From a plasmid, in sequence record NZ_CP024444.1: a stretch of DNA of 64,000 nucleotides; one strand, written 5' to 3'. The position numbers and the translations under genes were made by a program. Shown in pieces: positions 25,368 to 47,660 of the stretch; position 1 is the first letter of the stretch, and the number at the start of each line of letters is the position of its first letter. The notes beneath the pieces are model-generated. The model ran no database searches. It was given only the letters and a program-made list of their open reading frames with translations, and was not told the origin of the DNA.

Positions 25368-25724
25368 ATGCTAGTTATTGTGATTGCAATGCTTAGTGCG
25401 TATATAGTCAATCTTATCTTATCGTTTTGCAATAAAAGAAAAATTGATAAACGCATCACATATTCAATAGTAGCTGGCATGCTGATTATCAGTTTTTCTG
25501 CTGTCATCTACAATGTTTATTACCTTGACCCCTACATGAAAAAACAATTTGATGCCTATCAAAATCATGTAATACAACAAAATAAACAGCGTGTTGAAAT
25601 GCAGCGTATGCAGGCATTTATTAGATATGCCAATGCGTCAGACAGCCCAGCTGCCAAAGCCCAAGCTGAAGAACTGCAGCGTAAGCTTGATGCCATGCAA
25701 AAAAATCAAAGCAATACTCAATAA
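25368..25724 (+). CDS. small membrane protein with C-terminal coiled coil
   Basis: 118 aa; two N-terminal TM helices then a Q/K-rich helix. Confidence 0.4.
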   Translation: MLVIVIAMLSAYIVNLILSFCNKRKIDKRITYSIVAGMLIISFSAVIYNVYYLDPYMKKQFDAYQNHVIQQNKQRVEMQRMQAFIRYANASDSPAAKAQAEELQRKLDAMQKNQSNTQ

Positions 25725-25936
25725 GAAATATAACTTTTATAAAGTATTGACAACATCCCTAATCACTTTTAATATTCATAAACAAAATTACCGAAATAAA
25801 TGTTGATTGCAGCTATATGTGGCATCAAAATTTGATTTTTATCGAGTAGTTTGTATTATAATGTTCACACAACAGTTTTAATATGTGTTTACATCATATT
25901 ATTATTTAAGCAACAATTAATTTTATTGTTGTGATA

Positions 25937-25948
25937 ATTATTAGCGAA
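25937..25948 (+). promoter_or_regulatory. island motif copy (ATTATTAGCGAA)
   Basis: 6 nt upstream of ATG 25955. Confidence 0.5.
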
Positions 25949-25954
25949 TCAGAT

Positions 25955-26284
25955 ATGTTTAAAAAGAAAACGCCCGATTACCGGGGTAAAGCAATCATGC
26001 TTTATGAACCCGAAGACTTGTCTAATATTGAAGACAGATTTAGCCTTTGGCGAAAATCAGAATCTTTATATCACACCGATAAAACCACTCTCTTTAAATA
26101 CAACGAGCTTTTAAAGCGTCTTATTAACTACACAAATACCCTGTCAGCTTTGTTAGCAACCGCACTACTACTGGGCGTGTTGTATCTTGTGCTGTTTGGC
26201 AACTTTGAGAAAACAGTCCTTATAGATGGTACTTATTTGAGTTGTGTCGTTCAACCTGACGGCACGATTGGCGTTGATTTTTAA
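25955..26284 (+). CDS. small single-TM protein, candidate DotJ/IcmM-like
   Basis: Start moved to ATG 25955 (MFKKKTPDYRGK..); one TM helix (..ALLATALLLGVLYLVLFG..); lies immediately upstream of the DotI-like gene, as icmM does in Legionella. The motif ATTATTAGCGAA lies just upstream. Confidence 0.35.
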   Translation: MFKKKTPDYRGKAIMLYEPEDLSNIEDRFSLWRKSESLYHTDKTTLFKYNELLKRLINYTNTLSALLATALLLGVLYLVLFGNFEKTVLIDGTYLSCVVQPDGTIGVDF

Positions 26285-26302: not shown

Positions 26303-27391
26303 ATGAATGACAACTATGACGATCAGACGAACCAGCGAGTAAGTCAACCCAATAACGGCATAACGAATGATGAATTTGACACCGCCAGTGTCCCCTTAAC
26401 CACTGACGCAAATGTTCGCCATGTTGATGATATTGAGTCACAGCCATTGCCTTATGGTGGTCTTGTCAATCAAGATGACACCGTTGAACTTCAAAATACC
26501 CTAGAGGAAATCGAAAAAGACCACGGTACTACCGAAGTTTATAAGATTGAAGAACAAGAGCTTAGTCAAAAACAATACCTCGACTTGCCTGTCCCTGGTA
26601 TTGATAACGATTACTACGAGCAGTCAGCGGTGGATGATGACAATCTAAAGCATGTTGAGCAGTATGACACCCAAGCTGGCGCATTCATGACACCTGAACA
26701 AATGACCAATTTGTCACCTGAAGATAAGGAGGCTTTATTAGCATCGGGGCAGATCGGCATCGGTACGATTATTCGTGAAAATGCTCATTTAGTGCAAGAT
26801 GCAATCAATAACCGCAAAACCCTATCTAAAGCAATCTTTGTAAGCCTAGCATTACTGGTCGCCTGTGTTGGTTTATTAATCGCCTTTTTGTCATATCCAA
26901 AAGTGCGTTACATCCCAACTAAAGATAACACTTCGATTTGTGAAGTAACTGCTGAAAACAATCCAAACCTTACCGACCCAATGATTTCTAACTTTGCCAA
27001 AGATGCCGTTGTTAATCTATACACGATGGACTATATCAATTGGAAATCCCAAAGTAACGCCTCTCTTGAGCGTTGGTTCACCAATCAAGGTCGAGTGGAC
27101 ACTATCAAAGCTATTCAAACCGCTGGTATTACCGATTACCTAGAAAAAAATGCATTGACCATGCGAGCTACCAACACAGGTGCACCACAAATTGAACAAA
27201 CAGGTAATTTAAGTGATGGTACCAAGTTTTGGCTAGTGCGTTTCCCCATGATTATTGATGTTTTTTCAGGCAAACCCACGCCTGAAGACACCCAACGATA
27301 CATTGTATCTGTACGTGTAATTGCTGATACCGCCAGTGCTCAAAATCCAGCTGGATTGGGCGTTAACTCTGTAACATTGAAACCAAATTGA
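26303..27391 (+). CDS. dotI/icmL: DotI/IcmL (TraM-like) type IVB secretion inner-membrane protein, with a 170-aa acidic N-terminal extension
   Basis: Single TM (..IFVSLALLVACVGLLIAFL..) followed by a periplasmic IcmL-like domain (..DPMISNFAKDAVVNLYTMDYINWKSQ....FWLVRFPMIIDVFSG..). Confidence 0.6.
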   Translation: MNDNYDDQTNQRVSQPNNGITNDEFDTASVPLTTDANVRHVDDIESQPLPYGGLVNQDDTVELQNTLEEIEKDHGTTEVYKIEEQELSQKQYLDLPVPGIDNDYYEQSAVDDDNLKHVEQYDTQAGAFMTPEQMTNLSPEDKEALLASGQIGIGTIIRENAHLVQDAINNRKTLSKAIFVSLALLVACVGLLIAFLSYPKVRYIPTKDNTSICEVTAENNPNLTDPMISNFAKDAVVNLYTMDYINWKSQSNASLERWFTNQGRVDTIKAIQTAGITDYLEKNALTMRATNTGAPQIEQTGNLSDGTKFWLVRFPMIIDVFSGKPTPEDTQRYIVSVRVIADTASAQNPAGLGVNSVTLKPN

Positions 27392-27407: not shown

Positions 27408-28472
27408 ATGACATTTCCATCTTTGAAACCTATTATTCTTGGCCTTGTTGTCGCCACAGTATCGTTAATCACCCCAGCTGAAGCGCGTACCTCAAAACTG
27501 CCACCTAATACCATAGATATTAATGGTGGTGGGCGTTCCCCCGTGATTGCATTGGCACCAGCGGATATTCAACCACAAATTGTGCCATCACCGCGCACCA
27601 TGATATCTAGTCAAGTGGCAGAATTCCAACAAATGCAGCTAACGCCTGAAGAGGCGGACACCATCAAGCGCATTCGTTTGGATCGCCAGCGTATTGAAGC
27701 CACACCTTATGTCACAACGCCTGAACCTATTGTACGTTCATTAGGTGTTGAACTTGAGCCCGGCAAAACGCCACCCTTGATACGCGTATCAAAAAATATG
27801 CTGACAAGCATTGTCTTTACCGACGTAGATGGCAATCCATGGTACATCGAAAAGGTTGCTCTAAACCGTAACCAATTTTCTGACGCGGTATCTGCCGACA
27901 CGATTGCAGCCGACCAAAACGGGCAGCCATCAAGCAATCCAAATCAACCACAGCAAGCCCCAAAACCAGCATTAACCAATATCTTAACTATTGAGCCAAA
28001 TGATGCGATTGCTTACGGCAACGTATCGGTTACCCTAAAAGGCAAGGCATTACCCGTTATCTTCTTGTTAGCCGCTGGTCAAAACCAAGTGGATGTGCGA
28101 GTCGATGCGCGTGTTCCTGGTACAAACCCTGACGCTAAACCAACGTATATACCAAGCCCAATTGAAACCATGACAGGCATCGATGATGCAGCATTAAGTT
28201 TTCTTGATGGCGTGATACCGCAAGACGCTCAACCAATGGTTTCATCTGACCCAGCTGCCCAAGCATGGCGATTTAATGATTATCTGTATGTAAAAACCCG
28301 TTTTGACGTGCTCTATCCTGCTTATACCTCTCGTGCATCTACCCAAAATAGCGTCAATATCTATCGCTTTAGCGCAACGCTACCTAACAATAGCATTACG
28401 TTGACCCAGCGTGGTGGCCAACCATTCACAGTGTCGTTTGAAGAGGCACCGTATAGCGAATATCAACGATAA
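27408..28472 (+). CDS. dotH/icmK: DotH/IcmK (TraN-like) outer-membrane core-complex protein
   Basis: 354 aa with a signal peptide; size and position between the IcmL and IcmE homologues match DotH. The sequence similarity is recalled, not computed. Confidence 0.5.
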   Translation: MTFPSLKPIILGLVVATVSLITPAEARTSKLPPNTIDINGGGRSPVIALAPADIQPQIVPSPRTMISSQVAEFQQMQLTPEEADTIKRIRLDRQRIEATPYVTTPEPIVRSLGVELEPGKTPPLIRVSKNMLTSIVFTDVDGNPWYIEKVALNRNQFSDAVSADTIAADQNGQPSSNPNQPQQAPKPALTNILTIEPNDAIAYGNVSVTLKGKALPVIFLLAAGQNQVDVRVDARVPGTNPDAKPTYIPSPIETMTGIDDAALSFLDGVIPQDAQPMVSSDPAAQAWRFNDYLYVKTRFDVLYPAYTSRASTQNSVNIYRFSATLPNNSITLTQRGGQPFTVSFEEAPYSEYQR

Positions 28473-28495: not shown

Positions 28496-30721
28496 ATGAC
28501 TACATTGGTATATGACAACAACAGTTTTTTTAACTTTAACAGTTCTTTTAACTCACTACTGGACGGTATTATGGAAAAAGTTCCTGGTATGCTCGGTCCT
28601 GATAGTCCACCTATGGCATCAAATGCTGTGACAGAGAATGTGGTTGTAACTGAAACAATCCAACAAACCACTGTTGCGCCATCTGACGTGATTTTGGATG
28701 ACCCAGGATTGACTACAGAACCAACGTTCCAAACTAGACCAAAGCCACTTAATCATAATCTACGTCGATTTATGAAAGAGTCATGGTTTAGACCTGTGGC
28801 GTTGGCATCTGCTGCCATTCTTGCAATTGGTGTCACCTTTGCAATCGGCTCTTTATCACAAAAAGACACCCCATTGGATAAAAAATCTCAAATGGATGTC
28901 GTGGATATCAACCAATCAAAAACAGGTGAGGAAAGCCTAAGTCCTCAACAAGCCGAGTTTTTACGTCAAAAACAAGCTGCACTTGCAGAACAAAATGAAC
29001 AAGCAGGGGTTACCAACGCGCCAGCGGTTATTATCCCGACAGCGACTACAGCTGATACGACAGCGACGTCTATGCCTATCGATACCAATCAGTCAGACGC
29101 ATCGGGTTTTAAAAAGAAAGACGCTTTGGTAAACCCTAACGGTGCGCCAGCTAATCAAGCAAATGCTTTACCACCTGATATCAACGATCCAAATAAATAC
29201 CAAAAGGTTGGTAGTGGCAGCGATACTTACTATATCGAAAAAAGCACACAGCGTCTTATTGTGCCACCAAACCAAGCCTTTACTGAAACCAAACCAGCAC
29301 CGATTGTTCAGCCTGGCAATGGCACGGCAACGGCAATGACTGCCAATACAGGCGGTACGGGTGGTGCAGGGGGCGCAGGCGGTACGGGTGGTGCAGGGGG
29401 CAATGGTAGTGGCGATCCAACTTATACCGTTGACCCTACTATTCAACGTTTGCGTGACGAAGTTAAAGCCAATTTTGACCAACAGCAACAAGCAGAAGAT
29501 GCTTATAATCAGCAACAGCAACAAGCGCAGCTGCAAGCACAGCAACAGCAAATGCAGCAACAGCAAGCGTTGATGCAACAACGTCAGCAAATGGCGGCTA
29601 ATGCGTTAAATAGCCAAGTGCAAACGTTAAGCAATAATGGGCAAGCAACGGGCGGTGGTTTCTCAACCAAAGCTTACCGCGTCAACCCATCAAATTACGC
29701 TATTAATGGCAACGTTAACATTGGTCAACCACAATACAATGACTACACGCGTCGCAACAATGGCGAGAATGTGCAATTTAATAATTCTATGAGTGTATCG
29801 GGGGCTGGTACTTCCAATACAAATTTTAATTCTGCAAATACTGGTGTTGCCAACAACACTTCAAGTCAGTATTTGCCGAGTAACGTCATTCGTGCTGGCA
29901 CAAGCTGGCCTGTGGTTATCACTAAAGAAGTGAATACCGATGAAGGTTTGCAAGTTATTGGACGTATTATGTCGGGTAAATTTGCAAATTCAACGGTATA
30001 TGGCATGGTGCAACCAACTGGGCGCAATATTGGGGTGGTTTTTGACCGGATTGCCCCAACAAACCCACGAAAACCTATTATTCCTGTCAATGCGATCGCA
30101 ACAACCATCGGCACTCAAAAACAAGCAGTAGCAACTAAGGTTAGCAAGCATTATCTACAAAATTATTCAGTTATTGCCGCAGAATCGATATTTGAAGGTT
30201 ATCAAGGTGCTTATGCAGGCGATGTCGGCGGTACAACGGTAACTGCTGGTGATGGCACTACTATCACTACAAAGCCAAAACCGAACTCTGAAATTATTCG
30301 CGGTAAAGTAATTGGTTCATTAAGTGGCAAATTAAACAATGATGTTGCCGCATTGGGTAACCGTGCCCCAACCTTTGAAATTGGTGTGGGTACCGTGCTT
30401 AATATGATGCTAATGAACGATTTTGATGTAACGCAAACAGTCAGTGATTTAGGGGGCGGTAGCAATACCCAAGGTGGTTCGGGTGGTATGGGTGGTGGTA
30501 ATTATTTTTTACCAAACGGTGGTCGCACTAACACGTCATACTACCAACCTAACGGTGGCAACAACCAACAAGGTGTTCAGCAAAATACGGGTAATTACCC
30601 ACAGGGCTACCAAAACTCACCGTACTCTCAAAGCAATCAAGATATGGGTTATACGCAAAATCAAGCGAATGGCTATTATCAACAACAGGTACAACCAAAT
30701 TATAACTATCAGCAACAATAG
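28496..30721 (+). CDS. dotG/icmE: DotG/IcmE (TraO / VirB10-like) channel protein with Gln/Gly-rich low-complexity regions
   Basis: 741 aa. TM around residue 100, Gly-rich and poly-Gln middle, and a C-terminal TrbI/VirB10-like beta-barrel region (..AGTSWPVVITKEVNTDEGLQVIGRIMSG..VVFDRIAP..). Ends in a Q/N/G/Y-rich tail. Confidence 0.6.
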   Translation: MTTLVYDNNSFFNFNSSFNSLLDGIMEKVPGMLGPDSPPMASNAVTENVVVTETIQQTTVAPSDVILDDPGLTTEPTFQTRPKPLNHNLRRFMKESWFRPVALASAAILAIGVTFAIGSLSQKDTPLDKKSQMDVVDINQSKTGEESLSPQQAEFLRQKQAALAEQNEQAGVTNAPAVIIPTATTADTTATSMPIDTNQSDASGFKKKDALVNPNGAPANQANALPPDINDPNKYQKVGSGSDTYYIEKSTQRLIVPPNQAFTETKPAPIVQPGNGTATAMTANTGGTGGAGGAGGTGGAGGNGSGDPTYTVDPTIQRLRDEVKANFDQQQQAEDAYNQQQQQAQLQAQQQQMQQQQALMQQRQQMAANALNSQVQTLSNNGQATGGGFSTKAYRVNPSNYAINGNVNIGQPQYNDYTRRNNGENVQFNNSMSVSGAGTSNTNFNSANTGVANNTSSQYLPSNVIRAGTSWPVVITKEVNTDEGLQVIGRIMSGKFANSTVYGMVQPTGRNIGVVFDRIAPTNPRKPIIPVNAIATTIGTQKQAVATKVSKHYLQNYSVIAAESIFEGYQGAYAGDVGGTTVTAGDGTTITTKPKPNSEIIRGKVIGSLSGKLNNDVAALGNRAPTFEIGVGTVLNMMLMNDFDVTQTVSDLGGGSNTQGGSGGMGGGNYFLPNGGRTNTSYYQPNGGNNQQGVQQNTGNYPQGYQNSPYSQSNQDMGYTQNQANGYYQQQVQPNYNYQQQ
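29351..29401 (+). repeat. near-perfect tandem duplication (24-nt unit, 27-nt period) encoding GGTGGAGG(A)
   Basis: GGCGGTACGGGTGGTGCAGGGGGC occurs twice, separated by GCA, inside the dotG-like gene. Confidence 0.85.
29470..29600 (+). repeat. CAG/CAA codon-repeat (poly-Gln) tract
   Basis: Runs of CAACAGCAACAAGC.. encode QQQQAQLQAQQQQMQQQQALMQQRQQ. Confidence 0.8.
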
Positions 30722-30804: not shown

Positions 30805-31920
30805 ATGAAAAGTGTAACAAAAGCCACGTCGAAGGTGACTAGATTAACCGAAATGACATCAGCGACACCAGGCAAACCGGGTATTAAAACGGATCAAACG
30901 CAAAAGAAAAAATTAGACTTGCCCTTACCATTACCAGCCTTAATCGCCTTAGGTGTTTTGGTTGCAGGCGTCATGATTTTTGCAATTGTTCACCAAATGA
31001 ACCGCAAACCAACCGTGGTTCAGACAAAAATAGTTACCCCAATTGCCTCTACCACGGCAACGACTGAACTTACCACAGTCGGCACCCAACCGACTACTGT
31101 TGTGAGTGTTATCAATCCAAGTCCTGATTATTTCATGAATAAGCCTGACCCAATTGGGGCGTTAGCTGAACAAAGTACCGACCAAGCGATTAAAGGTAGT
31201 CCTACCTATCAACCCAATGTTGGTTTAAGAACCCCAAACGGTACCATCATTGCTGAAGCATCACCGGAAATGAATACCATCCGTCAAGCCGTTCAATCGG
31301 GGGTAGTGCAAACACTTAATGGCGCAATTACGTCGCAAAGTAATGGTCAAGGCGGACAGACGCTAACTTATATATCGCCAACAGGTCAAAGCATGCCATT
31401 GGCAACAGAACCAGCGCAATCTCAAGTGCAACAGTTGGCATTTGCTACTGCAAGAGATCAGTTGCAAAGCCAATTGCTCATTGCATCGACAGCTCAACAA
31501 GCTGGTACCCCTGTGCCTGTTCAACCAGTACAGCCAGTACAAGCCCAAGCTGCACCATCGCTTAACAACGAAGAAAAACAAGCATTGATGGACATCATTG
31601 CTATGCAAAAGCAACAAAACTTGCAATTGCGTATGCAAAACCGTGAAATCAAAGACAAGATGGCGACTCAAGACCGTCAAGTCACTCAAGTATTCCAACG
31701 TCTTGAAGACTCACCGAATGCAAGCCAAAAACTACGTGCAACGATGCTGCCTAAATCTGCTGGCTATAAATACATTGCTTCAATGAATGGTCGTTATTGG
31801 GTTCAAGACAAGACAGGTCATATTACTACCTTAACTTCAGGCGAGATTTTACCTGGCACTGACTTGCGCATTGTCGATGCACAGGCTGATACAGGTATTA
31901 TTTTGGTTACTAGAAAATAA
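30805..31920 (+). CDS. dotF/icmG: DotF/IcmG-like (TraP-like) bitopic inner-membrane protein
   Basis: 371 aa; N-terminal TM (..ALIALGVLVAGVMIFAIV..), Q-rich coiled coil and a C-terminal periplasmic domain; positioned after the dotG-like gene. The motif TTTTAGCGAA is upstream. Confidence 0.45.
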   Translation: MKSVTKATSKVTRLTEMTSATPGKPGIKTDQTQKKKLDLPLPLPALIALGVLVAGVMIFAIVHQMNRKPTVVQTKIVTPIASTTATTELTTVGTQPTTVVSVINPSPDYFMNKPDPIGALAEQSTDQAIKGSPTYQPNVGLRTPNGTIIAEASPEMNTIRQAVQSGVVQTLNGAITSQSNGQGGQTLTYISPTGQSMPLATEPAQSQVQQLAFATARDQLQSQLLIASTAQQAGTPVPVQPVQPVQAQAAPSLNNEEKQALMDIIAMQKQQNLQLRMQNREIKDKMATQDRQVTQVFQRLEDSPNASQKLRATMLPKSAGYKYIASMNGRYWVQDKTGHITTLTSGEILPGTDLRIVDAQADTGIILVTRK

Positions 31921-31935: not shown

Positions 31936-32544
31936 ATGCTGTTATTGACCGTCAATAAACCCGATATCATTGTCATGCTGTCCAATATGGCATTGGCATT
32001 TGATTATCTATTGAAGTTTTTGCGCTATGCATTAGTGTTTTTATCATTGGTGTGGGTTTTTTATGCCTTGTTAAATTTGTATGCATTAGCTTCAGCAAGT
32101 AGCGGTGTACCAAACAAATTTTTCCCAACTCAAGCGCAGCCAACGACGGCTGGTGCTTTTGCCCAATTATTTGTCGCAGGTTTATTATTTACATTTGCTT
32201 GGAATTTGCTACCGATGGCAATCATGAGTTCATCGGTAATGGATAGTATTGCAGGGGTTAAGGTTTACTCATTAGGTAGTTATGATACAACCAATCCAAA
32301 TTCTGACGTGGTTCGTAAGTTGTCCTATGATTTACTTATCAAGGTTATGCAATTTATTGGATTTATGGGGATGTTTAAAGGCATACGCCTGTGGTACCAA
32401 GTATCGCAAGGCACCAATAATGAGCCAAGCTGGAAAATTATGGGCTATTTATTTTGGGGAATGGTGGCATTTAATTTTGAATGGTTCTACTCATTGTTAA
32501 CCAGCATTATGGGCTTTGACTTCTTAGGCTTGTTTATGCACTAG
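31936..32544 (+). CDS. dotE/icmC: DotE/IcmC-like polytopic membrane protein
   Basis: 202 aa, about 4 TM; assigned by position in the icmG-icmC-icmD-icmJ order. Confidence 0.4.
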   Translation: MLLLTVNKPDIIVMLSNMALAFDYLLKFLRYALVFLSLVWVFYALLNLYALASASSGVPNKFFPTQAQPTTAGAFAQLFVAGLLFTFAWNLLPMAIMSSSVMDSIAGVKVYSLGSYDTTNPNSDVVRKLSYDLLIKVMQFIGFMGMFKGIRLWYQVSQGTNNEPSWKIMGYLFWGMVAFNFEWFYSLLTSIMGFDFLGLFMH

Positions 32545-32815: not shown

Positions 32816-33223
32816 ATGAAAATTACAGACATTAAGCAGTCTATTAACGACAAAGTTTTAGCAGCATTCGTTCTACTCCCAGCAATTATTGCCACCATGC
32901 CAGCCGAGGCTAGTACCTCGCTATCAGATGCCTACAGCGCAGACAAATCTAAAGCAGGCTCATTAACATCGTCAAACGGCGGTAATGCTGACGCAGGCTT
33001 AGGTATCGTCTATAAATTACTATCAGGTGTTTTCATCCTAGTGGGCTTATGGTTCATTGGTACTGGTTTCATGAAAGTTCGTAAAGCATCAAACAGTGAA
33101 GGTCGTGAAAGCCCTACAGGTGGTTGGGTTGCCGTTGTCATTGGCGGTGCCCTAGCGACATCATCTTACATTCTTTGGACCATGTCTAAAACAGTTGAAA
33201 ACGTTACTGGTGCTAGTTCATAA
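32816..33223 (+). CDS. dotP/icmD: DotP/IcmD-like small membrane protein (copy 1)
   Basis: 135 aa; signal/TM plus two TM helices; C-terminus ..LWTMSKTVENVTGASS is paralogous to the next gene. The motif lies 12 nt upstream of the ATG. Confidence 0.4.
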   Translation: MKITDIKQSINDKVLAAFVLLPAIIATMPAEASTSLSDAYSADKSKAGSLTSSNGGNADAGLGIVYKLLSGVFILVGLWFIGTGFMKVRKASNSEGRESPTGGWVAVVIGGALATSSYILWTMSKTVENVTGASS

Positions 33224-33253
33224 GAGTAAACGGTTAACACCTTGTCAACTCAA

Positions 33254-33290
33254 AAGCATCTATTCATTAAACTGGGTAGGTGCTTTTTTT
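33254..33290 (+). terminator. putative rho-independent terminator
   Basis: AAGCATCTA..TAGGTGCTT imperfect stem followed by T7, between the two icmD-like paralogues. Confidence 0.45.
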
Positions 33291-33322
33291 AATTACAACA
33301 TAGAAATCTAATACAACCTACA

Positions 33323-33712
33323 ATGGGTGTTGAAATGTCTAATCTACAACAGCTAAAAAAACTGCCTGCCACATTAATTTCATTGCTGATCCTTTTTTAT
33401 GTATCACCAACCTTTGCCGCCCTTGATGCCCTACCTGATTCGCCACACCAAGATGCAACCATTCCCAAAGTAGCAGGACATTTTGATGAAACATTGGGTA
33501 TTGCTTATAAAACCTTTACGGGTTTTGCTGTGGTGGTAGGCTTAATCTTTATTTACGTTGGACTAAGCCGACTTAAAAAAATCAATAACGATGAAATCAG
33601 TGGTAGCGTGGCATCCTGTTTTTGGATATTGGGTATCGGTGGTGCGATGGCATCCTTGGGCGTCGTTTTATTTTCTATGTCTAAAACCGTTGAGTCGGGT
33701 ACGACAGGTTAA
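33323..33712 (+). CDS. DotP/IcmD-like small membrane protein (copy 2)
   Basis: 129 aa; same architecture; C-terminus ..LFSMSKTVESGTTG. A putative terminator (33254-33290) separates it from copy 1. Confidence 0.4.
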   Translation: MGVEMSNLQQLKKLPATLISLLILFYVSPTFAALDALPDSPHQDATIPKVAGHFDETLGIAYKTFTGFAVVVGLIFIYVGLSRLKKINNDEISGSVASCFWILGIGGAMASLGVVLFSMSKTVESGTTG

Positions 33713-36155: not shown

Positions 36156-36215
36156 CCAGCTCACGTCTTTATCCCTTTGATGCATTTTGCAAAAACGAAA
36201 CAGGATTTTCATACC

Positions 36216-37592: not shown

Positions 37593-37619
37593 ATACACCC
37601 ATTACAATCAATAAAACAA

Positions 37620-39259: not shown

Positions 39260-39278
39260 GGGAATATCCTATCATGGT

Positions 39279-39289
39279 TCGCTAAAAAT
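39279..39289 (-). promoter_or_regulatory. island motif copy on the minus strand (TTTTTAGCGAA)
   Basis: About 17 nt upstream of the minus-strand start at 39259. Confidence 0.55.
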
Positions 39290-39349
39290 TAATTACCCGA
39301 TAAAGGGTGATTAAATATTAGCATACTCACATGCGCTTAACTATGAAGT

Positions 39350-39757: not shown

Positions 39758-39870
39758 ATCATTAGACCTATTTATAATTTGAAAGCAATGTTTATTCTAA
39801 TCTTATCATTAATACAATAAACATCCTACAAGCAAACTTGACTACGGGTGTTCACGTCAGTCATTTTTAA

Positions 39871-39881: not shown

Positions 39882-40042
39882 TATTAACTTTAGTTGGACA
39901 TTGTCAATAACTTGACAAAAATATAAGATAATTTAACACACTTGTTGATAAATACGTTAAACTGTCTTAACTAACTATATACCAATTGGTTAGCATAAAA
40001 GTTAATGTTAAGTTCTTAACCAACCACCTTATGCGAAACTTT

Positions 40043-41080
40043 ATGAAAAAATCTGCATTGGTTTTTGTGAGTTTATTGGCTGGCGTGTCGATGACGGCAT
40101 GTAGTTCAAACAACCAATCTAAACAAGCAAAAGCCGCATCTGCGCCAGCCGCTACCGATGTACATGAAGCACAAGATACATGGGTCGCAAACGCTATCGT
40201 TGACCCACAATTCAAACTCACCCAAGAATATCAAAAATACGTCAGCAATCCCAATTACACACCCATGCTACAAAACATACCACATTTGATTGGTATGACA
40301 TCTTCAGAGCAATCCGCTTTACTTGCACAAAACCAAAGTGTTTTAAATATCAATAATATTGATTATATGTTTACCGCTGATACCTTGATACTACAACCAC
40401 AAGGGTTATTGAGCTCTAATATCAAATCAAATTTTGCCTTGCCACCCGGCAATTTAAAACTACGCCTATTGGATATTGATTGCCCAGCGCATGACCAATA
40501 TGGCGATAAAGAGGCACAAGCGCAGCTAAAAACCTTAATTGATTTTGCAAAATTGCCTGTACCAACACCGCGCATCGAATTTTACTTTAATAATGCCGAC
40601 TCGTCGGGTCGTCTGCTTGGCTATTTAACCGTCTTATATAGTAATGGCTTGCGTATTAACTTAAATAGAAGTTTGGTGGCCAGTGGTCAGTGCTTTAATC
40701 ATGTTGAAGGCAATCAAGACCCTATGATGTCGTTTATCCAAAACATGGCTAAAGCATCACAAACAGGGATATGGGCGCAAGAACAAACCTTGCGTAAACA
40801 AAATAAGTGGGTCATGCCAGCCGATTATAGAAAGGTGCATCCCGATCCAACCAATATTGATATCCCAGCAGGCATAGTCAGCAATCAACCAATAGTAGGT
40901 CTTGCATCGGCAACCGCAGGCACGGTGATGCCGACTGCATCAACGCCCATTGCGACCACCACAACCAACAATAAAACTGTCACCGTTACCACTAACCCGA
41001 CAACAGGTAGCACCAATCAAGTGGTAACAACGACCAATAGTACCGTAGTAAAACAACCAGCTGCACCAACAGTTAAGTAA
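40043..41080 (+). CDS. staphylococcal-nuclease (SNase/thermonuclease)-like lipoprotein
   Basis: Start moved to the MKKSALVFVSLLAGVSMTACSS lipoprotein signal. SNase-like ..LRLLDIDCPAHDQYG.. and ..GRLLGYLTVLYSNGLRINLNRSLVASG.. motifs. C-terminal T/N/P-rich low-complexity tail. Confidence 0.55.
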   Translation: MKKSALVFVSLLAGVSMTACSSNNQSKQAKAASAPAATDVHEAQDTWVANAIVDPQFKLTQEYQKYVSNPNYTPMLQNIPHLIGMTSSEQSALLAQNQSVLNINNIDYMFTADTLILQPQGLLSSNIKSNFALPPGNLKLRLLDIDCPAHDQYGDKEAQAQLKTLIDFAKLPVPTPRIEFYFNNADSSGRLLGYLTVLYSNGLRINLNRSLVASGQCFNHVEGNQDPMMSFIQNMAKASQTGIWAQEQTLRKQNKWVMPADYRKVHPDPTNIDIPAGIVSNQPIVGLASATAGTVMPTASTPIATTTTNNKTVTVTTNPTTGSTNQVVTTTNSTVVKQPAAPTVK

Positions 41081-41149: not shown

Positions 41150-44100
41150 ATGAGCATTGTTAACAATGTACAAAATATTGTATTAAGCATCCTGCATGCG
41201 CTAAAAGCCAATGTGGAAGACTATTGCGACCTTGAAACCACCGATGGTCCTACTGAATTAGTATTTAAAAATGGCGGCATGATGACCCTTGTTCGGTACG
41301 ACGGGTTGTTATCCATGATTACCCGTGACATCTTTGATGGTATGAATGACCGTCTTACTGAAGAAATGGCACCGTTTTTAAACAAGTCAGGTCATAAAGT
41401 CTGTATGATGTTTCGACGTGACTTAGATGCCAACTCGTCGCTTCAAACCATTAATCAGCTGCAAAAGCAAACCTGTGAACGCTTGAACTTAGACTTGGGT
41501 TATCTGATTGATGAAAATACCGAAATTTACGAAAAATATATCTATGACGAAGAGTGCTACATTGCCTTAATCACCTTGCCATCCGTTTTAGATAAGGTTG
41601 AGCGTGAAAATCACGAAGAGTATTTAAAGTCGTTCATCGCGCCAGCCATGAAGGATGCGCAAAATCTATCTGCCCCCATTCCCACCTTACGTGCTCGCCA
41701 CTCTTCATTTGTTGAAAAATTCATAACCACCATCAACAACAAAGATTTCTATGTTAAAGCGGTTAAGGTCAACATCCTTGATGCCCTAGCGGTCGTGCGT
41801 CACCAAGTAGCACCAAATACCTCCGACCGTCGCTGGCGTCCGGCAGTTGCCTTAGGTGCTGCCAATGCGCGTGAATTAGGTATTAAGTATCGTACACCGC
41901 TACGTTGGCCAACCACCAGCAACTCACATGATTTTTCACACATGTTGCCGCCATCATTGCCTGAACAAATCATGTTTAATAACATTAATATTTTAGGTCC
42001 CAAAGAGGGCTTGCCACCCAATACCATTGCTACCGATGGTCGTTTGTATGCCACCACCATGATGAATATTCCGCCAACCCAACCAGCGGTATTTGAAGCC
42101 TTATTCAATAGCTTTAATGAGTCATCGTCAAAGGATAGTATGGGGCGCATTCGCTCGATGCCATACTCAATTTGTTTTATGTTGACGGGTGACGGCTACG
42201 CAGGGCATGCGGTGAAAAAAGCCTTTATGCAGTTTTTAAGCAAAGTGCCACCAAGCACCAATGAAAATTTAAAAGCAGCAACCAGTCAGCTGTTAGAATA
42301 TAAACGTGCCGATGTACCCTTGGTTGCGTTTCAGATATCAGCCATGACGTGGTGTGATGATGATGCGTTTGGACGTGAGGAAATCCGTAAACGTCGTACT
42401 CGCTTAATTCATACCTTATCTACTTGGGGTGGCATGAGCTGTGTTGAACGTGCTGGTGACCCTGTATCGATGTTTACCAGTAATATTATTGGTTTATCAG
42501 ACACTTCAATTGCACCAAAGGGTGTTGCGCCTCTACCACGCGCATTTGAAATGATGCCGTTCACCCGTCCTGCATCGCCTTTTTATAAAGGCACGGTACT
42601 GCGTCGCACCCAAGATGGTAAAGCGATGATTTTGGAACGTTTCTCGTCTGAATTAAGCACATGGATTTCGCTATATTCAGGTCGACCGGGTTCGGGCAAA
42701 TCGGTATCGCTTAACAACGACTTAACTGAAACTTGCTTTATGCCGGGTATTGAGCGACTGCCGTATATTACCGTGATTGACGTGGGTATTAGCTCGACAG
42801 GTTTTATTAATCAGCTGCGCAATGGGCTACCTAAGCACCAACGCTATCTTGCTGTCACCAAGCAATTAAGAAAGTCGCGAGAGTATGCGATCAATCCATT
42901 TGATATCAAAGTGGGCTTAACCCGTCCGCTTGAAACCGAAAAAAACCAAATGGCCAGTTTCTTAACCTCGCTATTAACCCCTAAAGAAAAACGTGAACCT
43001 TATAACGGCACTTATAACTTCGTCCTGTACCTTATCACTGAAGTATTTGAGTCAGTAAATGAAGGGGAAGAGAAGGGGTCATCGAAAATCTATCGATACG
43101 GTTATGCCCCTGAATTGGATGATTACTTAATCAATAACAACATCATTCGCTTTGGTACTAAACAAGTGGCTGACGGGTTTGGTGGTCTTAAAAAAATTAT
43201 TGACGGCGATGACATTGAATCGGTCAGTTATTATGAATTAACCCGACGCTTACATGTGATTGGTACTAAATTTGGTGGTGATGAACGCGCATTGGCTTGG
43301 CGTGCTCGTGACTTGGCGCATCGAAACGCAATGCCAACCCTAGATGACATTGTTAAGGTGTTAAATAAACCTGAAACCACCAAACGCTATAAAAACAAAA
43401 TCGAAACTGAAGAAACCATTGTTGAATACGCCTCGCGTGTTATCAATGAGGTAATTAATAACTACCCATGTTTTGCCAATACGACACGTTTTGATGTCGA
43501 CACAGCTCGCGTGGTCGCGCTTGACTTAAACGATGTGGTGGACGTAAATAACCCACAGCAAACCTCGTTGTTTTATCAAATCGCCCGTATGGTGGGGGTA
43601 AAAAAAATCTCACTAACCGAGCAGGATATTGAGTCTGAAGCCATCCCTGACTTGTTTAAACCGTATTACCGTGACCTGTTCCGTGAAATCTCACAGGACC
43701 GCAAAATCCTTGCTATGGATGAAATGCATAACTTGCAGGGTGAGCCTGTCCTCATGGCGCAGCTTGAGAAAGACTGCCGTGAGGGTCGTAAATGGGGACT
43801 TGAAGTTATTTTGGCGTCCCAACGTTTAATCGACTTTAAACGCATTGTCGGCTACGCAACCACGTTAAACATCTGTAGTGAGCCAGCTGGTGAGGACTTA
43901 GCATTACTGCGTGAAAACTTCCGTATCAACGACACCATGGTAGACCAACTGTCACGCATTTCATTGGGTCGTGAAGGCTTAAGTTATTTCTCTTACATCG
44001 TCGGTAAAACCGATATTTATTGTTCAATGCTTACCATGACGGTAGGTCCAAAACGCTTATGGTCGCTGACCACCGATGCTGATGACCGTATTTTACGTCA

Positions 44101-44359
44101 GTATATGTTTGATATCGCTGGCGACAGAAAAACCGCGATCAATGCACTGGCGTTTCGGTTCCCGGGTGGTGCTCGTAACGCCATTAGTGACCTACGTGAG
44201 CAAGTTAAGCTTAAAAGCTCTGACCTATCTGAAGTTGAAATGGAAAAAGAGGCTGGCAACTTGATTGAGAACTTGGCTCGCGAAACGTTGTCGATGTGGG
44301 ACCAATTCCAATTAAATATACAAGCCGACGAACAAAGCGGCTTGTTAGCGTTCGCATAA
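41150..44359 (+). CDS. dotO/icmB: DotO/IcmB (TraU-like) VirB4-class T4SS ATPase
   Basis: 1069 aa; Walker A ..YSGRPGSGKSVSL.. and Walker B ..ILAMDEMHNL..; follows the dotN-like gene as in Legionella. The motif TTAGCGAATAAGAGG lies upstream. Confidence 0.7.
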   Translation: MSIVNNVQNIVLSILHALKANVEDYCDLETTDGPTELVFKNGGMMTLVRYDGLLSMITRDIFDGMNDRLTEEMAPFLNKSGHKVCMMFRRDLDANSSLQTINQLQKQTCERLNLDLGYLIDENTEIYEKYIYDEECYIALITLPSVLDKVERENHEEYLKSFIAPAMKDAQNLSAPIPTLRARHSSFVEKFITTINNKDFYVKAVKVNILDALAVVRHQVAPNTSDRRWRPAVALGAANARELGIKYRTPLRWPTTSNSHDFSHMLPPSLPEQIMFNNINILGPKEGLPPNTIATDGRLYATTMMNIPPTQPAVFEALFNSFNESSSKDSMGRIRSMPYSICFMLTGDGYAGHAVKKAFMQFLSKVPPSTNENLKAATSQLLEYKRADVPLVAFQISAMTWCDDDAFGREEIRKRRTRLIHTLSTWGGMSCVERAGDPVSMFTSNIIGLSDTSIAPKGVAPLPRAFEMMPFTRPASPFYKGTVLRRTQDGKAMILERFSSELSTWISLYSGRPGSGKSVSLNNDLTETCFMPGIERLPYITVIDVGISSTGFINQLRNGLPKHQRYLAVTKQLRKSREYAINPFDIKVGLTRPLETEKNQMASFLTSLLTPKEKREPYNGTYNFVLYLITEVFESVNEGEEKGSSKIYRYGYAPELDDYLINNNIIRFGTKQVADGFGGLKKIIDGDDIESVSYYELTRRLHVIGTKFGGDERALAWRARDLAHRNAMPTLDDIVKVLNKPETTKRYKNKIETEETIVEYASRVINEVINNYPCFANTTRFDVDTARVVALDLNDVVDVNNPQQTSLFYQIARMVGVKKISLTEQDIESEAIPDLFKPYYRDLFREISQDRKILAMDEMHNLQGEPVLMAQLEKDCREGRKWGLEVILASQRLIDFKRIVGYATTLNICSEPAGEDLALLRENFRINDTMVDQLSRISLGREGLSYFSYIVGKTDIYCSMLTMTVGPKRLWSLTTDADDRILRQYMFDIAGDRKTAINALAFRFPGGARNAISDLREQVKLKSSDLSEVEMEKEAGNLIENLARETLSMWDQFQLNIQADEQSGLLAFA

Positions 44360-44371
44360 TAAGGAAACATC

Positions 44372-47317
44372 ATGCCAGCGTATCAGGGTAATCAATTAAA
44401 ATATAAGCCAACCGAACAGCGTGCTGAAACCAAACGATGGTCAGTACGCATGGCGGAATACTGGAAAACCTCTGAAGGGGCGACTTTCCTAGCAGGGACT
44501 TTGTCGGTTATCGGACTGGTTTCATCATTTTTCCCATTAGGGGGTATTCTAGCTTATCTACCGCTGCGTATCTTATCTCGCAATTTTTTATACCCTGAAC
44601 GCAATTTGCATGATATGCCTATTCGGGTACCAAAATACTTGGGGCTGCCCGATGGCTCTATCGATGCAACCGCCCGAGGTATTAACCCTAAAACCCAACC
44701 TGACAAGCTACTAGGTCAAGGCGTCACCTATCTTGGGATTGACCGCCAAACAGGTCGCCAAACCTATATTAGTAACTCGGACGTGCGCACCCACATGACC
44801 ATCATTGGGACCACAGGTTCGGGTAAAACTGAATTTATTTTTAGCTTGATTGATAACCAGCTTATTCAAAATAGTGGCTTTATCTTCGTCGATGCCAAAG
44901 GCGACATCAATTCACAGCGTACCGTCTGTGCGATGTTGCGTCGCTATATGCGTGAAGATGACATGCTGTCTATTTCATTTGGTGCGTTCGGGCGTAACTT
45001 TATGGAAGCCCAGCTTGATAAGCCAACCAATACCATGAATATCATGGCAAGTACCAGTGATGGTATGCTAATTGAGCTGTTGGCTGGCATGTTAGATAGC
45101 GGTGGAGGTTCATCTGACCTGTGGGTGGGTCGTGCAGTTGCTTTTGTGGGTGCGCTGACAAGACCACTGGTGTTCTTGCGTGACCGTGGCGAAATTAACC
45201 TGTCACCAAGCACGTATATTGAATACATGGAATTAAGCGAAATTGAACGCTTGGTATTTGAGCGCAATAACGATTATCCTGGCTTTGATGAAGTGTTGGC
45301 ACCGCTACGTTCTTACCTTATCACCTTGCCAGGTTATAGCATGGCCAAACGTGCCAAGGGTGAGGCACAAGACCAAAAAACCAATGAGCAGTTTGGTTAT
45401 ATCACCATGCAGCTAACCCGTGCAATCAATGACTTGTCCTACACCTATGGGCATATTTTTGGGGTCGAGCAAGGGGATGTGGATGTCGTCGATGTTATTT
45501 TAAACCGTCGCTGTTTAACCATCTTATTACCAGCCCTAGAACGTTCGATTGACTCATTGAATATGCTAGGTAAGCTCATTATCGGTAGTATCAAGCAAAT
45601 GATGGCAGGCTCGCTTGGTAATAAAATGGAAGGCTTGATCCGTGTGACCGTTGACTCACGCCCAACCACCGCAAATGACGCCTTTCAAATCATCCTAGAT
45701 GAAGTTGGGTACATGATGGTTCGCGGCATGTCAATTATTCCGGCACAAGCTCGCGCATTGAATATTGGCATGGTGTTTGCGTCACAATCGTACACCGATT
45801 TAAAACGTGGGTCAGCAGAAGAGGCTGAAGCGATTTGGGCAAATACCACCATTAAGGTCGTGGGTCGTTTAACTGAATCTGAAGACGATGAAACCATTCG
45901 TAAAGTTAAAGGTGTCGCTGGTCAATACGAACAGATGGTAACCAATAGCTATGACTATCAAGGTACCGATGTTGGCTATCAATACAACCCATCGCAATCC
46001 GTTCACCGCGAAATGCGCTCGCAAATCAATATGCAAGACTTGGGTGGTCAGCAAGACGGTGAATTCCATGTGGTGATTGGTAAGAAATTTAATGGTGGCA
46101 AATCACAAGGTTTAGCGGTTGTCCGTATTCTAGGTTTCTATATGGGCAAGATTGCTGAAGGCTCTCACATGTACCTAAATGACCTCGCGCCAGCACCCAT
46201 GCCCGATAAACGTAAATTTTTACATCTAAAAGAAGTCACCCAGCAATTACAAAGTGTGATTGAAAAACAGCAGTTAAGCCATGAGCTCAACAACAATATT
46301 AGCCAAACTGCCTCTATCCAAAAAACCCAAACCAATCGCTTAAGAAGTGAGCGAACGCCAGTTGGAACCGATAAAAACAATATTATTTTATTCCTGCGCC
46401 ATGCCAAACAAGAGATTATGGCGCATGCTGACGACTATGGTAGTCGCGCCTTGGTGACCGAGTTAACCCTTAATCGCTTGTCTGAAAGCTTGCAATCAGT
46501 GTTTAATAGCGAAGTGGTATTGCCTGTTAACCGCTTACGCAACGGCTCTATCAATCCAATGCAAGATGACGACGTCACAGGCTTTGTGGTGAGTCATGCC
46601 CCTGACATGCTGGATAGCAACTTGGTGACGGCAATGTCTGCCAATTTTGCGCAAACAGGCTACACCTTTGACCGCAGCTCGCATGAAGCAACCTTGCGCC
46701 ATCACTATGAGCTTGCTGAACAGCTACGCCAAGACGCTGAATTGGCGCGTTTAGAATCCGTGTATGCCGATAGTGATTTCCTTTGGGAAAGCCGTAAAAA
46801 TCAGCATTTTGATAGCATGTACCTAAACAATCATGGCGCATTGCCAAGCGATGCCTCGAACACGCCTGAAATGCAGGCATTGTCCCAGCAATTTGAAGAA
46901 AGACAGCTGCTACAACCACTGGCAATGACGGTGTTGTTTAATAACCATGAGATTAATGCCGCCATGAGCAATCCTGAACAGCTGCCAGCGGATGTTGACC
47001 CAACGTGGTTGTTAAATGCCAATGCCATTAAAGATGCTGACCAGTTGCGTAAAAAAATCCAGCAATACCTTGCCTTGCATCACACCCAAAACGAGGCGAT
47101 TGCTACCGAACATCAAATGCTATGTTTCTCAAACCGCTTAAGTGCCTCTATTGCTACCCAAAATGAAGCATTAGACAACCTTGGTAAAAACCGTCCTGTA
47201 TCGCCAAGCCGTTTCTTTGAAGATATGTCAGATAACAACTTACAAGAAACCTTTAAACGACTACGAAACAATGCATTGGTCGCACAGCAACAGCCAAAAA
47301 AAGATGACAGCCAATAA
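44372..47317 (+). CDS. dotL/icmO: type IV coupling protein (DotL/IcmO / TrbC-R64 / VirD4-TraG family) with long C-terminal extension
   Basis: 981 aa; N-terminal TM (..FLAGTLSVIGLVSSFFPLGGILAYL..), Walker A ..IIGTTGSGKTEF.., Walker B ..QIILDEVGYM... Translationally coupled to the dotO-like gene with a 12-nt gap. Confidence 0.7.
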   Translation: MPAYQGNQLKYKPTEQRAETKRWSVRMAEYWKTSEGATFLAGTLSVIGLVSSFFPLGGILAYLPLRILSRNFLYPERNLHDMPIRVPKYLGLPDGSIDATARGINPKTQPDKLLGQGVTYLGIDRQTGRQTYISNSDVRTHMTIIGTTGSGKTEFIFSLIDNQLIQNSGFIFVDAKGDINSQRTVCAMLRRYMREDDMLSISFGAFGRNFMEAQLDKPTNTMNIMASTSDGMLIELLAGMLDSGGGSSDLWVGRAVAFVGALTRPLVFLRDRGEINLSPSTYIEYMELSEIERLVFERNNDYPGFDEVLAPLRSYLITLPGYSMAKRAKGEAQDQKTNEQFGYITMQLTRAINDLSYTYGHIFGVEQGDVDVVDVILNRRCLTILLPALERSIDSLNMLGKLIIGSIKQMMAGSLGNKMEGLIRVTVDSRPTTANDAFQIILDEVGYMMVRGMSIIPAQARALNIGMVFASQSYTDLKRGSAEEAEAIWANTTIKVVGRLTESEDDETIRKVKGVAGQYEQMVTNSYDYQGTDVGYQYNPSQSVHREMRSQINMQDLGGQQDGEFHVVIGKKFNGGKSQGLAVVRILGFYMGKIAEGSHMYLNDLAPAPMPDKRKFLHLKEVTQQLQSVIEKQQLSHELNNNISQTASIQKTQTNRLRSERTPVGTDKNNIILFLRHAKQEIMAHADDYGSRALVTELTLNRLSESLQSVFNSEVVLPVNRLRNGSINPMQDDDVTGFVVSHAPDMLDSNLVTAMSANFAQTGYTFDRSSHEATLRHHYELAEQLRQDAELARLESVYADSDFLWESRKNQHFDSMYLNNHGALPSDASNTPEMQALSQQFEERQLLQPLAMTVLFNNHEINAAMSNPEQLPADVDPTWLLNANAIKDADQLRKKIQQYLALHHTQNEAIATEHQMLCFSNRLSASIATQNEALDNLGKNRPVSPSRFFEDMSDNNLQETFKRLRNNALVAQQQPKKDDSQ

Positions 47318-47330
47318 AGTGAGCAACGCT

Positions 47331-47660
47331 ATGAATAATAATCAACTTATGGATGATGATAATTTAGATGACGAATTCTTGCCATCCCCGTTATACGATA
47401 GTATGAAAACCCATCAAAGCTTTGAACACCTATTGGATAATGCCAAGTCGGTATTAAATACTCGTGCAGACTTTCCATTTTCTAGTATGCATAAACAAAC
47501 ATTAAAAAAATTGGAAAAAGTTGATAAAGCCTTTTTAAAACAAGTGACATTAGCTTTATCAACAGATGATGTAAAAAAGGATCAGTTATTAGCCAGTAAA
47601 CTAGAACAGATTACCCAATATCTGTTAGAAAGATTTGACTTCCTCCCCTCCCTAAAGTGA
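47331..47660 (+). CDS. hypothetical small protein whose 3' end is formed by IS200/605 terminal sequence
   Basis: Start trimmed to MNNNQLMDDD.. (ATG 47331). The last codons (..FLPSLK*) are encoded by the right-end hairpin of the TnpB element. Confidence 0.35.
   Translation: MNNNQLMDDDNLDDEFLPSPLYDSMKTHQSFEHLLDNAKSVLNTRADFPFSSMHKQTLKKLEKVDKAFLKQVTLALSTDDVKKDQLLASKLEQITQYLLERFDFLPSLK

Follow-up and report, generated by a model that had tools for sequence, protein, structure and literature searches.

The 64,000-nt stretch of plasmid sequence record NZ_CP024444.1 analyzed here (the window, which is all of its replicon that could be read) raises the question of whether a run of genes resembling a secretion system of type IVB (T4BSS) represents a complete machine, a reduced one or a stranded remnant, and what such a machine would transport. 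A first-pass annotation had proposed, at 25368–47660, a type IVB system of mating-pair formation type I (MPF-I) with the gene order of Legionella region II and with several components missing. Our analyses confirm this system and show a larger block, at approximately 21030–60358, residing on a megaplasmid of the pMOXF1 type from Moraxella osloensis, and a T4BSS that on pMOXF1 is complete but split, not reduced. This finding changes the expectation for the mobility of a plasmid that is typed as non-mobilizable. It also adds to a branch of T4BSSs whose members conjugate (Acinetobacter), kill bacteria (Pseudomonas putida) or affect virulence (Yersinia), and in which divergent members help to separate core genes from the genes that decide function.

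The type IVB block and its components on pMOXF1

All ten open reading frames (ORFs) listed in the first-pass annotation were found where it had placed them, on the + strand, and each of its assignments was tested, with profile-level support obtained for every gene it had named. The core genes are tightly packed in the order DotI-DotH-DotG-DotF-DotE-two DotP-like genes-DotN-DotO-DotL (Table 1), and with these assignments the order from DotI to DotO equals icmL-K-E-G-C-D-J-B of Legionella. DotI and DotH matched PF11393 (3.5e-23) and PF12293 (1.5e-50), both above the Pfam gathering score, as well as hidden Markov models (HMMs) of IncI TraM (5.7e-23) and TraN (8.7e-29), respectively; DotI also matched NF038072 (2.2e-21) and has a predicted transmembrane (TM) segment at residues 178–196. 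The coupling protein DotL matched the structure of Legionella DotL (PDB 6sz9, 1.8e-104 over residues 13–636), the NCBIfam family TrbC (NF041447, 9e-89), TraG-D_C and TrwB.

The ATPase DotO had no match to curated families in Pfam and NCBIfam scans, and single-sequence searches of PDB with DotO and DotG gave noise or low-complexity matches only, so that profiles or other references were needed. By tblastn, DotO matched 3777 plasmid records, with ~24% identity to IncI1 traU over 96% (~1e-57). It scored 4.8e-111 against an HMM of IncI1, IncL and Serratia TraU and E ~1e-110 against proteins named IcmB by their sources, and has a Walker A motif at residue 511 and a Walker B motif at residue 853. 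For the weaker assignments (DotN, DotF, DotE, the DotP-like proteins and DotG), family profiles were built from syntenic homologues. DotG matched NF033900 (8e-13) and an HMM of its clade homologues (1.1e-66), two of which carry Pfam TrbI, and its clade aligned with IncI TraO (hhalign 98.9%). The DotF profile matched PDB DotF (7muc, 3.9e-7), spanning the coiled-coil and C-terminal domain, and the DotE family aligned with TraQ and TraR of IncI/IncL plasmids (hhalign 93.9%, E 1.6e-7). The two DotP-like proteins belong to the same BLAST cluster as a single ~130-residue gene of the relatives; their family aligned with TraQ/TraR at hhalign 69% (E 4e-5), and the IncI HMM matched the second of the pair at 6.4e-4. 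DotN matched NF038221 (6.6e-6), its family profile matched PDB IcmJ(DotN) (5x1h, 2.4e-16) and aligned with IncI TraT (hhalign 85%), and the family alignment has the invariant residues C48, C51, H62, H63, H68, C80, C83, H84 and H88 (CxxC...HH...H...CxxCH...H). Directly upstream of DotI, the small protein Y clusters with the gene of 89–116 residues that precedes dotI in four related loci (L003, L020, L021 and L026 in our numbering); it was assigned by position alone because it gave no profile match to IncI TraL.

The block can be placed on a known type of plasmid. Window positions 21010–47634 are 99.6% identical over 26.6 kb to pMOXF1 of M. osloensis MOXF1 (CP040258.1, 248 kb), the match resumes at 48882–62476 (98–99% identity, ~13 kb), and the window's left-hand 20 kb have matches in other M. 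osloensis plasmids. The Moraxellaceae-like host that had been suggested is thus confirmed on sequence grounds. pMOXF1 is a macrolide-resistance (msrE/mphE) megaplasmid of human-associated Moraxella, and its genes beneath the match are annotated as hypothetical proteins with the sole exception of an "HNH endonuclease", which is the DotN homologue. The core T4BSS ORFs of the window are intact and equal in length to those in pMOXF1.

DotA, DotB, DotC, DotD and DotM were not found in the window by Pfam, NCBIfam and IncI HMM scans. The first-pass annotation had missed the same proteins and had left it undecided whether the system was split across loci, truncated by the flanking IS elements, or reduced or divergent; since the distal dot genes lie on pMOXF1, ~65–105 kb from the main block, it was the split that held, at least for that plasmid, and the reduction that did not. 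DotA/TraY is encoded at record positions 183576–186671 (TIGR04346, 8.3e-56), and a cluster at 194.5–202.1 kb encodes DotM (DotM_C, 3.8e-32), ParM, DotB (4e-57) and DotC (2.6e-36, both against IncI HMMs) and DotD (1.7e-24; hhalign 97%). Two paralogues at ~174.4–176.9 kb are probable TraW/IcmX-like proteins (hhalign 84%). IcmT/TraK was not convincingly found. IcmS/IcmW/LvgA, IcmR/IcmQ and DotU/IcmF had no Pfam or NCBIfam match among the window ORFs, with pMOXF1 partly scanned, and DotK was not detected in the window; at its position the relative L016 has an OmpA-family gene.

The extent originally given, 25368–47660, proved too small, its right-hand end being the stop of a gene that a TnpB insertion has cut short. 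At the left, X and Y are kept at the operon head in relatives. At the right, we set the end of the block at ~60358 because the genes that follow dotL in L016 (a metagenome contig whose DotO is 45% identical), encoding a DsbC-like protein, three unknowns, a 687-residue M23 hydrolase, a two-TM protein and a transglycosylase, are all homologous to window 50952–60358.

Nearest relatives of the Moraxella system

By sequence identity and architecture, the nearest relatives of the block are the Acinetobacter III-4a and Yersinia pVM82 systems and not those of IncI plasmids. DotO is 32–33% identical to its counterparts on the A. soli and A. lwoffii megaplasmids and on Yersinia pseudotuberculosis p_153kb, compared with 24% to IncI1 and IncL TraU, and DotL is 44–47% identical to those of Acinetobacter III-4a and Yersinia pVM82, compared with 27% to IncI1 TrbC. 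The IncI homology noted in the first-pass annotation is real, although the closest relatives lie elsewhere. The relatives have a common architecture of dotB-dotC-dotD (divergent) and X-Y-dotI-H-G-F-E-P-N-(unknown)-dotO-dotL. An immediate Moraxella-type clade is formed by ~25 uncharacterised protein clusters, mostly from sequencing-run assemblies, whose DotO is 45–54% identical. In the plasmid collection nothing but pMOXF1 was closer than 32% DotO identity, and a DotO scan of species-representative genome contigs found no relative. The Moraxella locus, which is divergent and had not been annotated before, thus belongs to a known T4BSS branch and is not novel in kind, as systems of this branch have already been described in Acinetobacter, Yersinia and Pseudomonas.

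The Acinetobacter III-4a megaplasmids (prototype pALWED1.1, with A. soli pAS903-1-1 and A. lwoffii pH7-250, locus L030, the gene sizes of which are those tabulated for pALWED1.1 in PMC8490738, Table 2) resemble the Moraxella system in host family and megaplasmid context, in the order from X to DotL, including a gene between DotN and DotO, and in having a dotD-dotC-dotB/ParM/dotM module, which is also present in pMOXF1. They differ in that identity is only 32% (DotO) to 47% (DotL) and that their dotDCB module is adjacent and divergent, whereas it is ~100 kb away in pMOXF1. Compared with Acinetobacter, the Moraxella block has two DotP-like copies, inserted MORN, Y1-like, 529-residue and SNase genes, and a different downstream module (DsbC, three unknowns and M23 hydrolase). 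The yT4BSS of Y. pseudotuberculosis pVM82 and IP31758 p_153kb (DotO 32.6% and DotL 44% identical) likewise has X, Y and DotN, with a zinc-ribbon protein and SLT gene after DotL as here, and pVM82, like pMOXF1, is typed as non-mobilizable, together with MPF_I. It differs in its adjacent dotDCB genes and in the H-NS and SSB genes after DotL, and a role in pathogenicity has been reported for it but no conjugation demonstrated.

The killing system (kib) of P. putida IsoF reportedly belongs to this sublineage, a likeness drawn from its published description and not from sequence identity. Its 17 Dot/Icm homologues, with many hypotheticals interspersed, are reported in the order DotI ... DotO-DotL-(hypothetical needed for killing)-TrbN, as here. 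In contrast to the Moraxella block, kib is a chromosomal genomic island that delivers effectors, with an identified effector-immunity pair, and, within the limits that its authors set for the cluster, they list no X-like gene at its head.

More distant are IncI1 (R64/ColIb-P9) and IncL/M (pCTX-M3, pOXA-48), which are plasmid-borne like the Moraxella system and have homologues of TraM, N, O, P, Q, R, T, U, TrbB and C in the same relative order, but at only 24–28% identity. In IncI, trbABC lies apart from traU, whereas here the TrbC-type dotL directly follows dotO, and IncI/L/M plasmids have a NikB/TraI MOBP relaxase, NikA/MobA and Sog primase, whereas no such relaxase was detected here. The Dot/Icm system of Legionella and Coxiella is colinear (icmL-K-E-G-C-D-J-B), gave direct PDB matches to DotL, DotN and DotF and, in Legionella, is likewise split into two regions. 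It differs in having dotL upstream and not after dotO, and the Moraxella system differs from it in being plasmid-borne in a non-Legionellales host and in that scans of the window detected neither IcmS/W nor IcmR/Q nor DotU/IcmF.

Function and the candidate relaxase X

Documented functions of T4BSSs include conjugation (IncI/L/M) and effector delivery to eukaryotes (Legionella). We regard conjugative transfer of the megaplasmid as the most likely function here, with moderate confidence, because of the plasmid context and the closest precedent in the host family, Acinetobacter III-4a. Megaplasmids of the pALWED1.1 type reach transfer frequencies of up to 2e-1 per recipient, also mobilise small plasmids, and carry the MPF-I set with no relaxase identifiable (PMC8490738). 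What the parts are, and that the set is complete on pMOXF1, is observed, while the function and the sequence of events are what we infer. As in these Acinetobacter relatives, the block would act as a mating-pair-formation and coupling apparatus, in which, by homology, DotI, DotF, DotG, DotE and the DotP-like proteins make up the inner-membrane/periplasmic scaffold and DotH is an outer-membrane core subunit. DotL-DotM-DotN would recruit the nucleoprotein substrate, whose passage through a DotC-D-H-G-F channel DotO and DotB would power, with the DsbC-like protein, M23 hydrolase, TrbN-like transglycosylase and SNase-like nuclease as cell-wall and folding accessories and X as the best candidate for the DNA-nicking step. 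On pMOXF1 there are also features that we would expect of a transmissible plasmid, namely two ssb genes, topA, genes for ParM and a DUF1738 protein, and long runs of small genes that all point one way.

A number of results weigh against conjugation. An HMM of the NikB-type relaxases of IncI and IncL plasmids had no match on the window, in agreement with the earlier failure to recognise a relaxase there, or on pMOXF1 except its record 50–63 kb, in which no coding sequence is annotated as a relaxase, and Pfam and NCBIfam scans of ten large pMOXF1 hypotheticals gave no relaxase domain. No origin of transfer (oriT) was found, the MOB-suite type of pMOXF1 is non-mobilizable, and neither the Yersinia pVM82 system nor the P. 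putida IsoF kib system, which share the architecture, is known to conjugate. In addition, the distal dot loci were seen on pMOXF1 only and not in the 64 kb of the window, where an IS5 copy lies on one side of the block and an IS256 fragment on the other, with its pMOXF1 neighbors missing. The literature searched contained no transfer experiment for a Moraxella plasmid of this type.

Several of the same observations would fit a protein-effector translocator, delivering toxins into neighboring bacteria in the manner of IsoF kib or effectors into host cells in the manner of Yersinia pVM82, which we consider a serious though clearly less probable alternative. M. osloensis is both a skin organism and an opportunistic one. 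The architecture and the DotO and DotL identities of the block are closest to Yersinia pVM82, for which MacSyFinder and oriTfinder gave no relaxase or oriT, which contributes to pathogenicity and which its authors found closest to IsoF kib. The IsoF T4BSS in turn kills bacteria on contact by means of an effector-immunity pair encoded inside its cluster (PMC9519443), and the gene between its dotL and trbN is needed for killing. The lineage-specific inserts of the Moraxella block (the MORN, 529-residue and 479-residue proteins) could be effectors, its DotL has a long lineage-specific C-terminal tail, and no relaxase is detectable on pMOXF1. However, the equally close Acinetobacter III-4a relatives conjugate experimentally, also without a known relaxase, and the absence of a relaxase therefore does not discriminate between conjugation and effector delivery. 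Furthermore, no IcmS/IcmW/LvgA-type adaptor was found among the window ORFs, no effector-immunity pair, a kind of pair for which there is no family model, was identified, and the block sits on a plasmid with ssb, DUF1738 and topA genes and not on a chromosomal island.

It is unlikely, in our view, that the block is a stranded, non-functional remnant in the window's replicon, severed from its distal dot genes and own replication region by insertion-sequence rearrangement, although its borders are suggestive. Homology to pMOXF1 begins 20 bp before the X start codon, beside an IS5 copy, at a point where pMOXF1 has a rep gene and approximately eleven 21-bp iterons, a module that is missing from the window. 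It stops at 62476, beside an IS256-family transposase fragment (62669–63232, - strand), beyond which pMOXF1 has the gene for an 836-residue YadA-type trimeric autotransporter adhesin (record 111843–114353) that is also missing, and within the block a TnpB element splits one gene. Yet all recognisable T4BSS ORFs of the window are full length and 99–100% identical to pMOXF1 and to contigs of several independent samples, the disrupted gene is not conserved in relatives, and the distal loci may merely be situated beyond the 64 kb covered here. A type IVA (VirB1-11) or type II system misread as type IVB can be dismissed, as it has only generic features in its favor (the VirB10-like C-terminal domain of DotG and the VirB4- and VirD4-class ATPases), whereas the profile-HMM check proposed in the first-pass annotation gave matches for DotI, DotH, DotG, DotN, DotO and the coupling protein, the T4BSS-specific DotI/IcmL, DotH/IcmK, DotF, DotN and DotL all matched, and no VirB6, VirB8, VirB9, VirB11 or GspD/E/F family match was obtained in the window scans.

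For conjugation, the missing relaxase is a difficulty, and the relaxase gap of the conjugative Acinetobacter megaplasmids is a published open question for which protein X, the most interesting by-product of our analyses, offers a concrete and testable candidate. Fold comparison, which was the only source of this assignment, placed X in the tyrosine recombinase superfamily: its catalytic domain has the R-K-H/Y-R-H-Y residues at canonical spacing. Residues R196, K278, Y391-x-x-R394, H417 and Y427 are invariant in 30 diverse sequences, and the R-to-H spacing of 23 equals that of XerD. An X profile had no match to PDB sequences, X has no Pfam match, and among 78 homologues the only one recorded is an unrelated entry. 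X is kept as a gene heading the T4BSS operon in Acerihabitans and pND6-2 as well as in Moraxella, Acinetobacter III-4a and Yersinia pVM82.

Homologues of X occur in 197 plasmids, of Acinetobacter (151), Pseudomonas (25), Xanthomonas (6) and Yersinia (4) among others, including pVM82 and pND6-2, which are both typed "MPF_I, non-mobilizable". The genera listed for the 197 do not include Escherichia, Klebsiella or Salmonella, which together account for >2,700 of the TraU-bearing plasmids, with NikB-type relaxases. Several plasmids of the lineage, namely pMOXF1, pVM82, pND6-2 and pALWED1.1, have no known relaxase. Known tyrosine-recombinase-like relaxases include MpsA and TcpM. A further precedent is MobK (PMC8152469). 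Tentatively, and with more doubt than confidence, we propose X as the relaxase of an MPF-I sublineage comprising Acinetobacter III-4a, Moraxella pMOXF1-type plasmids, pND6-2 and Yersinia pVM82. Like these three proteins, X would nick oriT via its conserved Tyr427, and it would be delivered by DotL-DotM-DotN. On the other side, 117 of the 197 X-bearing plasmids are typed with some relaxase, X could be a resolvase or regulator, and one distant homologue lies near a replication module with no type IV secretion system in view. The pMOXF1-type plasmids, pND6-2 and pVM82 are typed without a relaxase; two of the Acinetobacter plasmids examined are MOB-typed MOBP, the A. soli plasmid has two MOB-typed relaxases, and the prototype pALWED1.1 reportedly has none. 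We found no paper linking X to the missing relaxase.

Two other candidates for DNA-processing elements were rejected. The Y1 protein at 39350 is not accepted as an HUH relaxase: its HUH motif is degenerate, reading H-C-I, no Tyr helix is present at its C-terminus, and relatives do not have the protein. Inverted repeats lie in the divergent dotD-X intergenic regions of Yersinia p_153kb (perfect, 21 nt; L029 19239–19306) and pND6-2 (16 nt; L031 13121–13173). They are possible recombinase or oriT sites, but with no sequence conservation between plasmids they were not taken as oriT evidence.

Accessory and inserted genes

The accessories noted in the first-pass annotation as reminiscent of IncI plasmids, an SNase-like nuclease, a DsbC/TrbB-like protein and a transglycosylase, were each borne out by family matches (Table 1).

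Table 1. Features of the T4BSS block in the window, with coordinates in nt and protein lengths in residues (aa)
Feature	Position	Strand	Description
Protein X, tyrosine-recombinase fold	21030..22685	+	551 aa; first gene of conserved block; candidate relaxase or recombinase
Five lineage-specific ORFs	22682..25724	- and +	241 aa (-); 243, 221, 186, 118 aa (+); present in pMOXF1
Small one-TM protein Y	25931..26284	+	TraL / DotJ(IcmM) position, directly upstream of DotI
DotI/IcmL/TraM homologue	26303..27391	+	362 aa; unusually long acidic N-terminal extension before TM
DotH/IcmK/TraN homologue	27408..28472	+	354 aa; signal peptide; outer-membrane core complex
DotG/IcmE/TraO homologue	28496..30721	+	741 aa; N-terminal TM, Q/G/N-rich linker, VirB10-like C-terminal domain
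DotF/IcmG/TraP homologue	30805..31920	+	371 aa; bitopic, Q-rich
DotE/IcmC/TraQ homologue	31936..32544	+	202 aa; polytopic
Two paralogous DotP/IcmD/TraR-type small membrane proteins	32816..33712 (starts 32816, 33323)	+	135 and 129 aa
DotN/IcmJ/TraT homologue	33739..34716	+	325 aa; zinc-binding Cys/His protein of coupling complex
479-aa protein	34716..36155	+	Start overlaps DotN stop codon
Secreted MORN-repeat protein	36177..37592	+	471 aa; PF02493 9.9e-35
529-aa protein	37670-39259	-	After Y1 protein; between dotN and dotO; no detectable relatives
Degenerate IS200-like Y1 protein	39350-39757	-	135 aa; PF01797 3.6e-11; between dotN and dotO
SNase-like lipoprotein nuclease	39986..41080	+	PF00565 1.3e-6; lipoprotein-like N-terminus
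DotO/IcmB/TraU VirB4-class ATPase	41150..44359	+	1069 aa
DotL/IcmO/TrbC type IV coupling protein	44372..47317	+	981 aa; 345-aa lineage-specific C-terminal tail
Accessory 274-aa gene, split	47331..49402	+	Interrupted by TnpB element
TnpB-only IS200/IS605-type element	47635-48881		1247 bp; tnpB 47652-48758 (-); NF040570 6.3e-80
HTH_3 regulator and three-TM protein	49550..50658	+	139 aa, PF01381 2.1e-5; 113 aa, TM prediction
DsbC/DsbG-like thiol-disulfide isomerase, TrbB analogue	50952..51962	+	Thioredoxin_2, DsbC_N; DsbG 1.7e-14
Three clade-conserved proteins	51963..54539	+	331, 199, 322 aa; syntenic homologues in L016, L019
Secreted peptidoglycan hydrolase, M23 peptidase domain	54727..56850	+	707 aa; PF01551 2e-7
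Two secreted/lipoprotein-like small proteins, mutually similar	56895..58008	+	177 aa, ~190-208 aa; signal-peptide-like N-termini
Zinc-ribbon and two-TM protein	58195..59262	+	355 aa; conserved partner of transglycosylase
TrbN-like lytic transglycosylase	59303..60358	+	351 aa; NF010463 TrbN 2e-23; homologues in L016, L021, L029

Downstream of DotL, much of the block is shared with relatives. Homologues of the DsbC-like protein, which aligned with IncI TrbB at hhalign 40%, follow DotL in L016 and in the metagenome locus L019 and also occur in Yersinia pVM82. The three clade-conserved proteins after it had no family in Pfam and NCBIfam scans, and none was found for the two small secreted proteins. 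The M23 protein is 32% identical to the 687-residue protein at the same position in L016; it was considered as DotA and rejected, being a secreted hydrolase with no TM segments. In L016, L021 and Yersinia L029, a homologue of the zinc-ribbon protein lies before the SLT gene. The weak match of this protein to TraX (0.0059; hhalign 12%) was not accepted. In position it corresponds to PisoF_02323 of the P. putida kib cluster and, on that basis, may be equivalent to the gene between dotL and trbN that IsoF needs for killing. Profiles of IncI TraL/V/W/X/K/ExcA matched neither Y nor the three downstream unknowns, the M23 hydrolase or the two small secreted proteins.

Other genes of the block look like insertions because they are absent from relatives: the MORN gene, the minus-strand pair at 37670–39757, the SNase and HTH genes and the five ORFs at 22682–25724, which have no Pfam or NCBIfam family and no counterpart in relatives. 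The MORN gene is absent at its position from L003, L016 and L029 and is probably cargo. In two sequencing-run contigs, which are otherwise identical, an 86-residue ORF takes its place and the space is ~900 bp shorter (L008 5925–6521), reflecting either a deletion or assembly collapse of the repeats. Of the Y1 gene the plasmid collection has just one copy, that of pMOXF1. The 479-residue protein after DotN has no family; only itself was found among the 5.8 billion proteins searched, its single homologue (443 residues) lies in L019, and it has no demonstrable kinship with the ~390-residue protein at the same position in Acinetobacter and Yersinia.

The alignment of window and pMOXF1 breaks exactly at 47634/48882, flanking the TnpB element, and the 274-residue gene that it interrupts is intact in pMOXF1 and L008. 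Contigs from five sequencing runs end at or near the insertion point, and one has the intact gene. The element has subterminal hairpins, and copies 85–90% identical to it occur on many Moraxella plasmids. A bidirectional terminator-like hairpin lies at 37618–37641 and a 12/12 consensus promoter at 39751–39778, before the SNase gene; promoter and terminator scans were at chance level, and no RNA was found with Rfam.

Minor observations concern the wider surroundings. Compared with pMOXF1, the window has an extra 272-bp segment (60408–60679) with no match in the plasmid collection. The pMOXF1 iterons (TTTTCTACATGATAGCCCxCA) lie between the replication-initiator gene and X, at record ~71.5–71.7 kb (L001 8186–8435). 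A run of large hypotheticals (755, 906, 1498, 881, 498, 476 residues and others) upstream of dotA, at record 156.9–183.4 kb, has no Pfam or NCBIfam match and is partly kept in the A. soli megaplasmid, with neighbors there of up to 2428 residues. At record 208–246 kb and 33–45 kb, pMOXF1 has arrays of ~40 small same-strand hypothetical genes with ~300-bp spacers, containing six pentapeptide-repeat proteins and the two ssb genes, which resemble a conjugative leading or anti-defence region. A YadA-type adhesin also adjoins the T4BSS in Moraxella sp. ZJ142 (L026).

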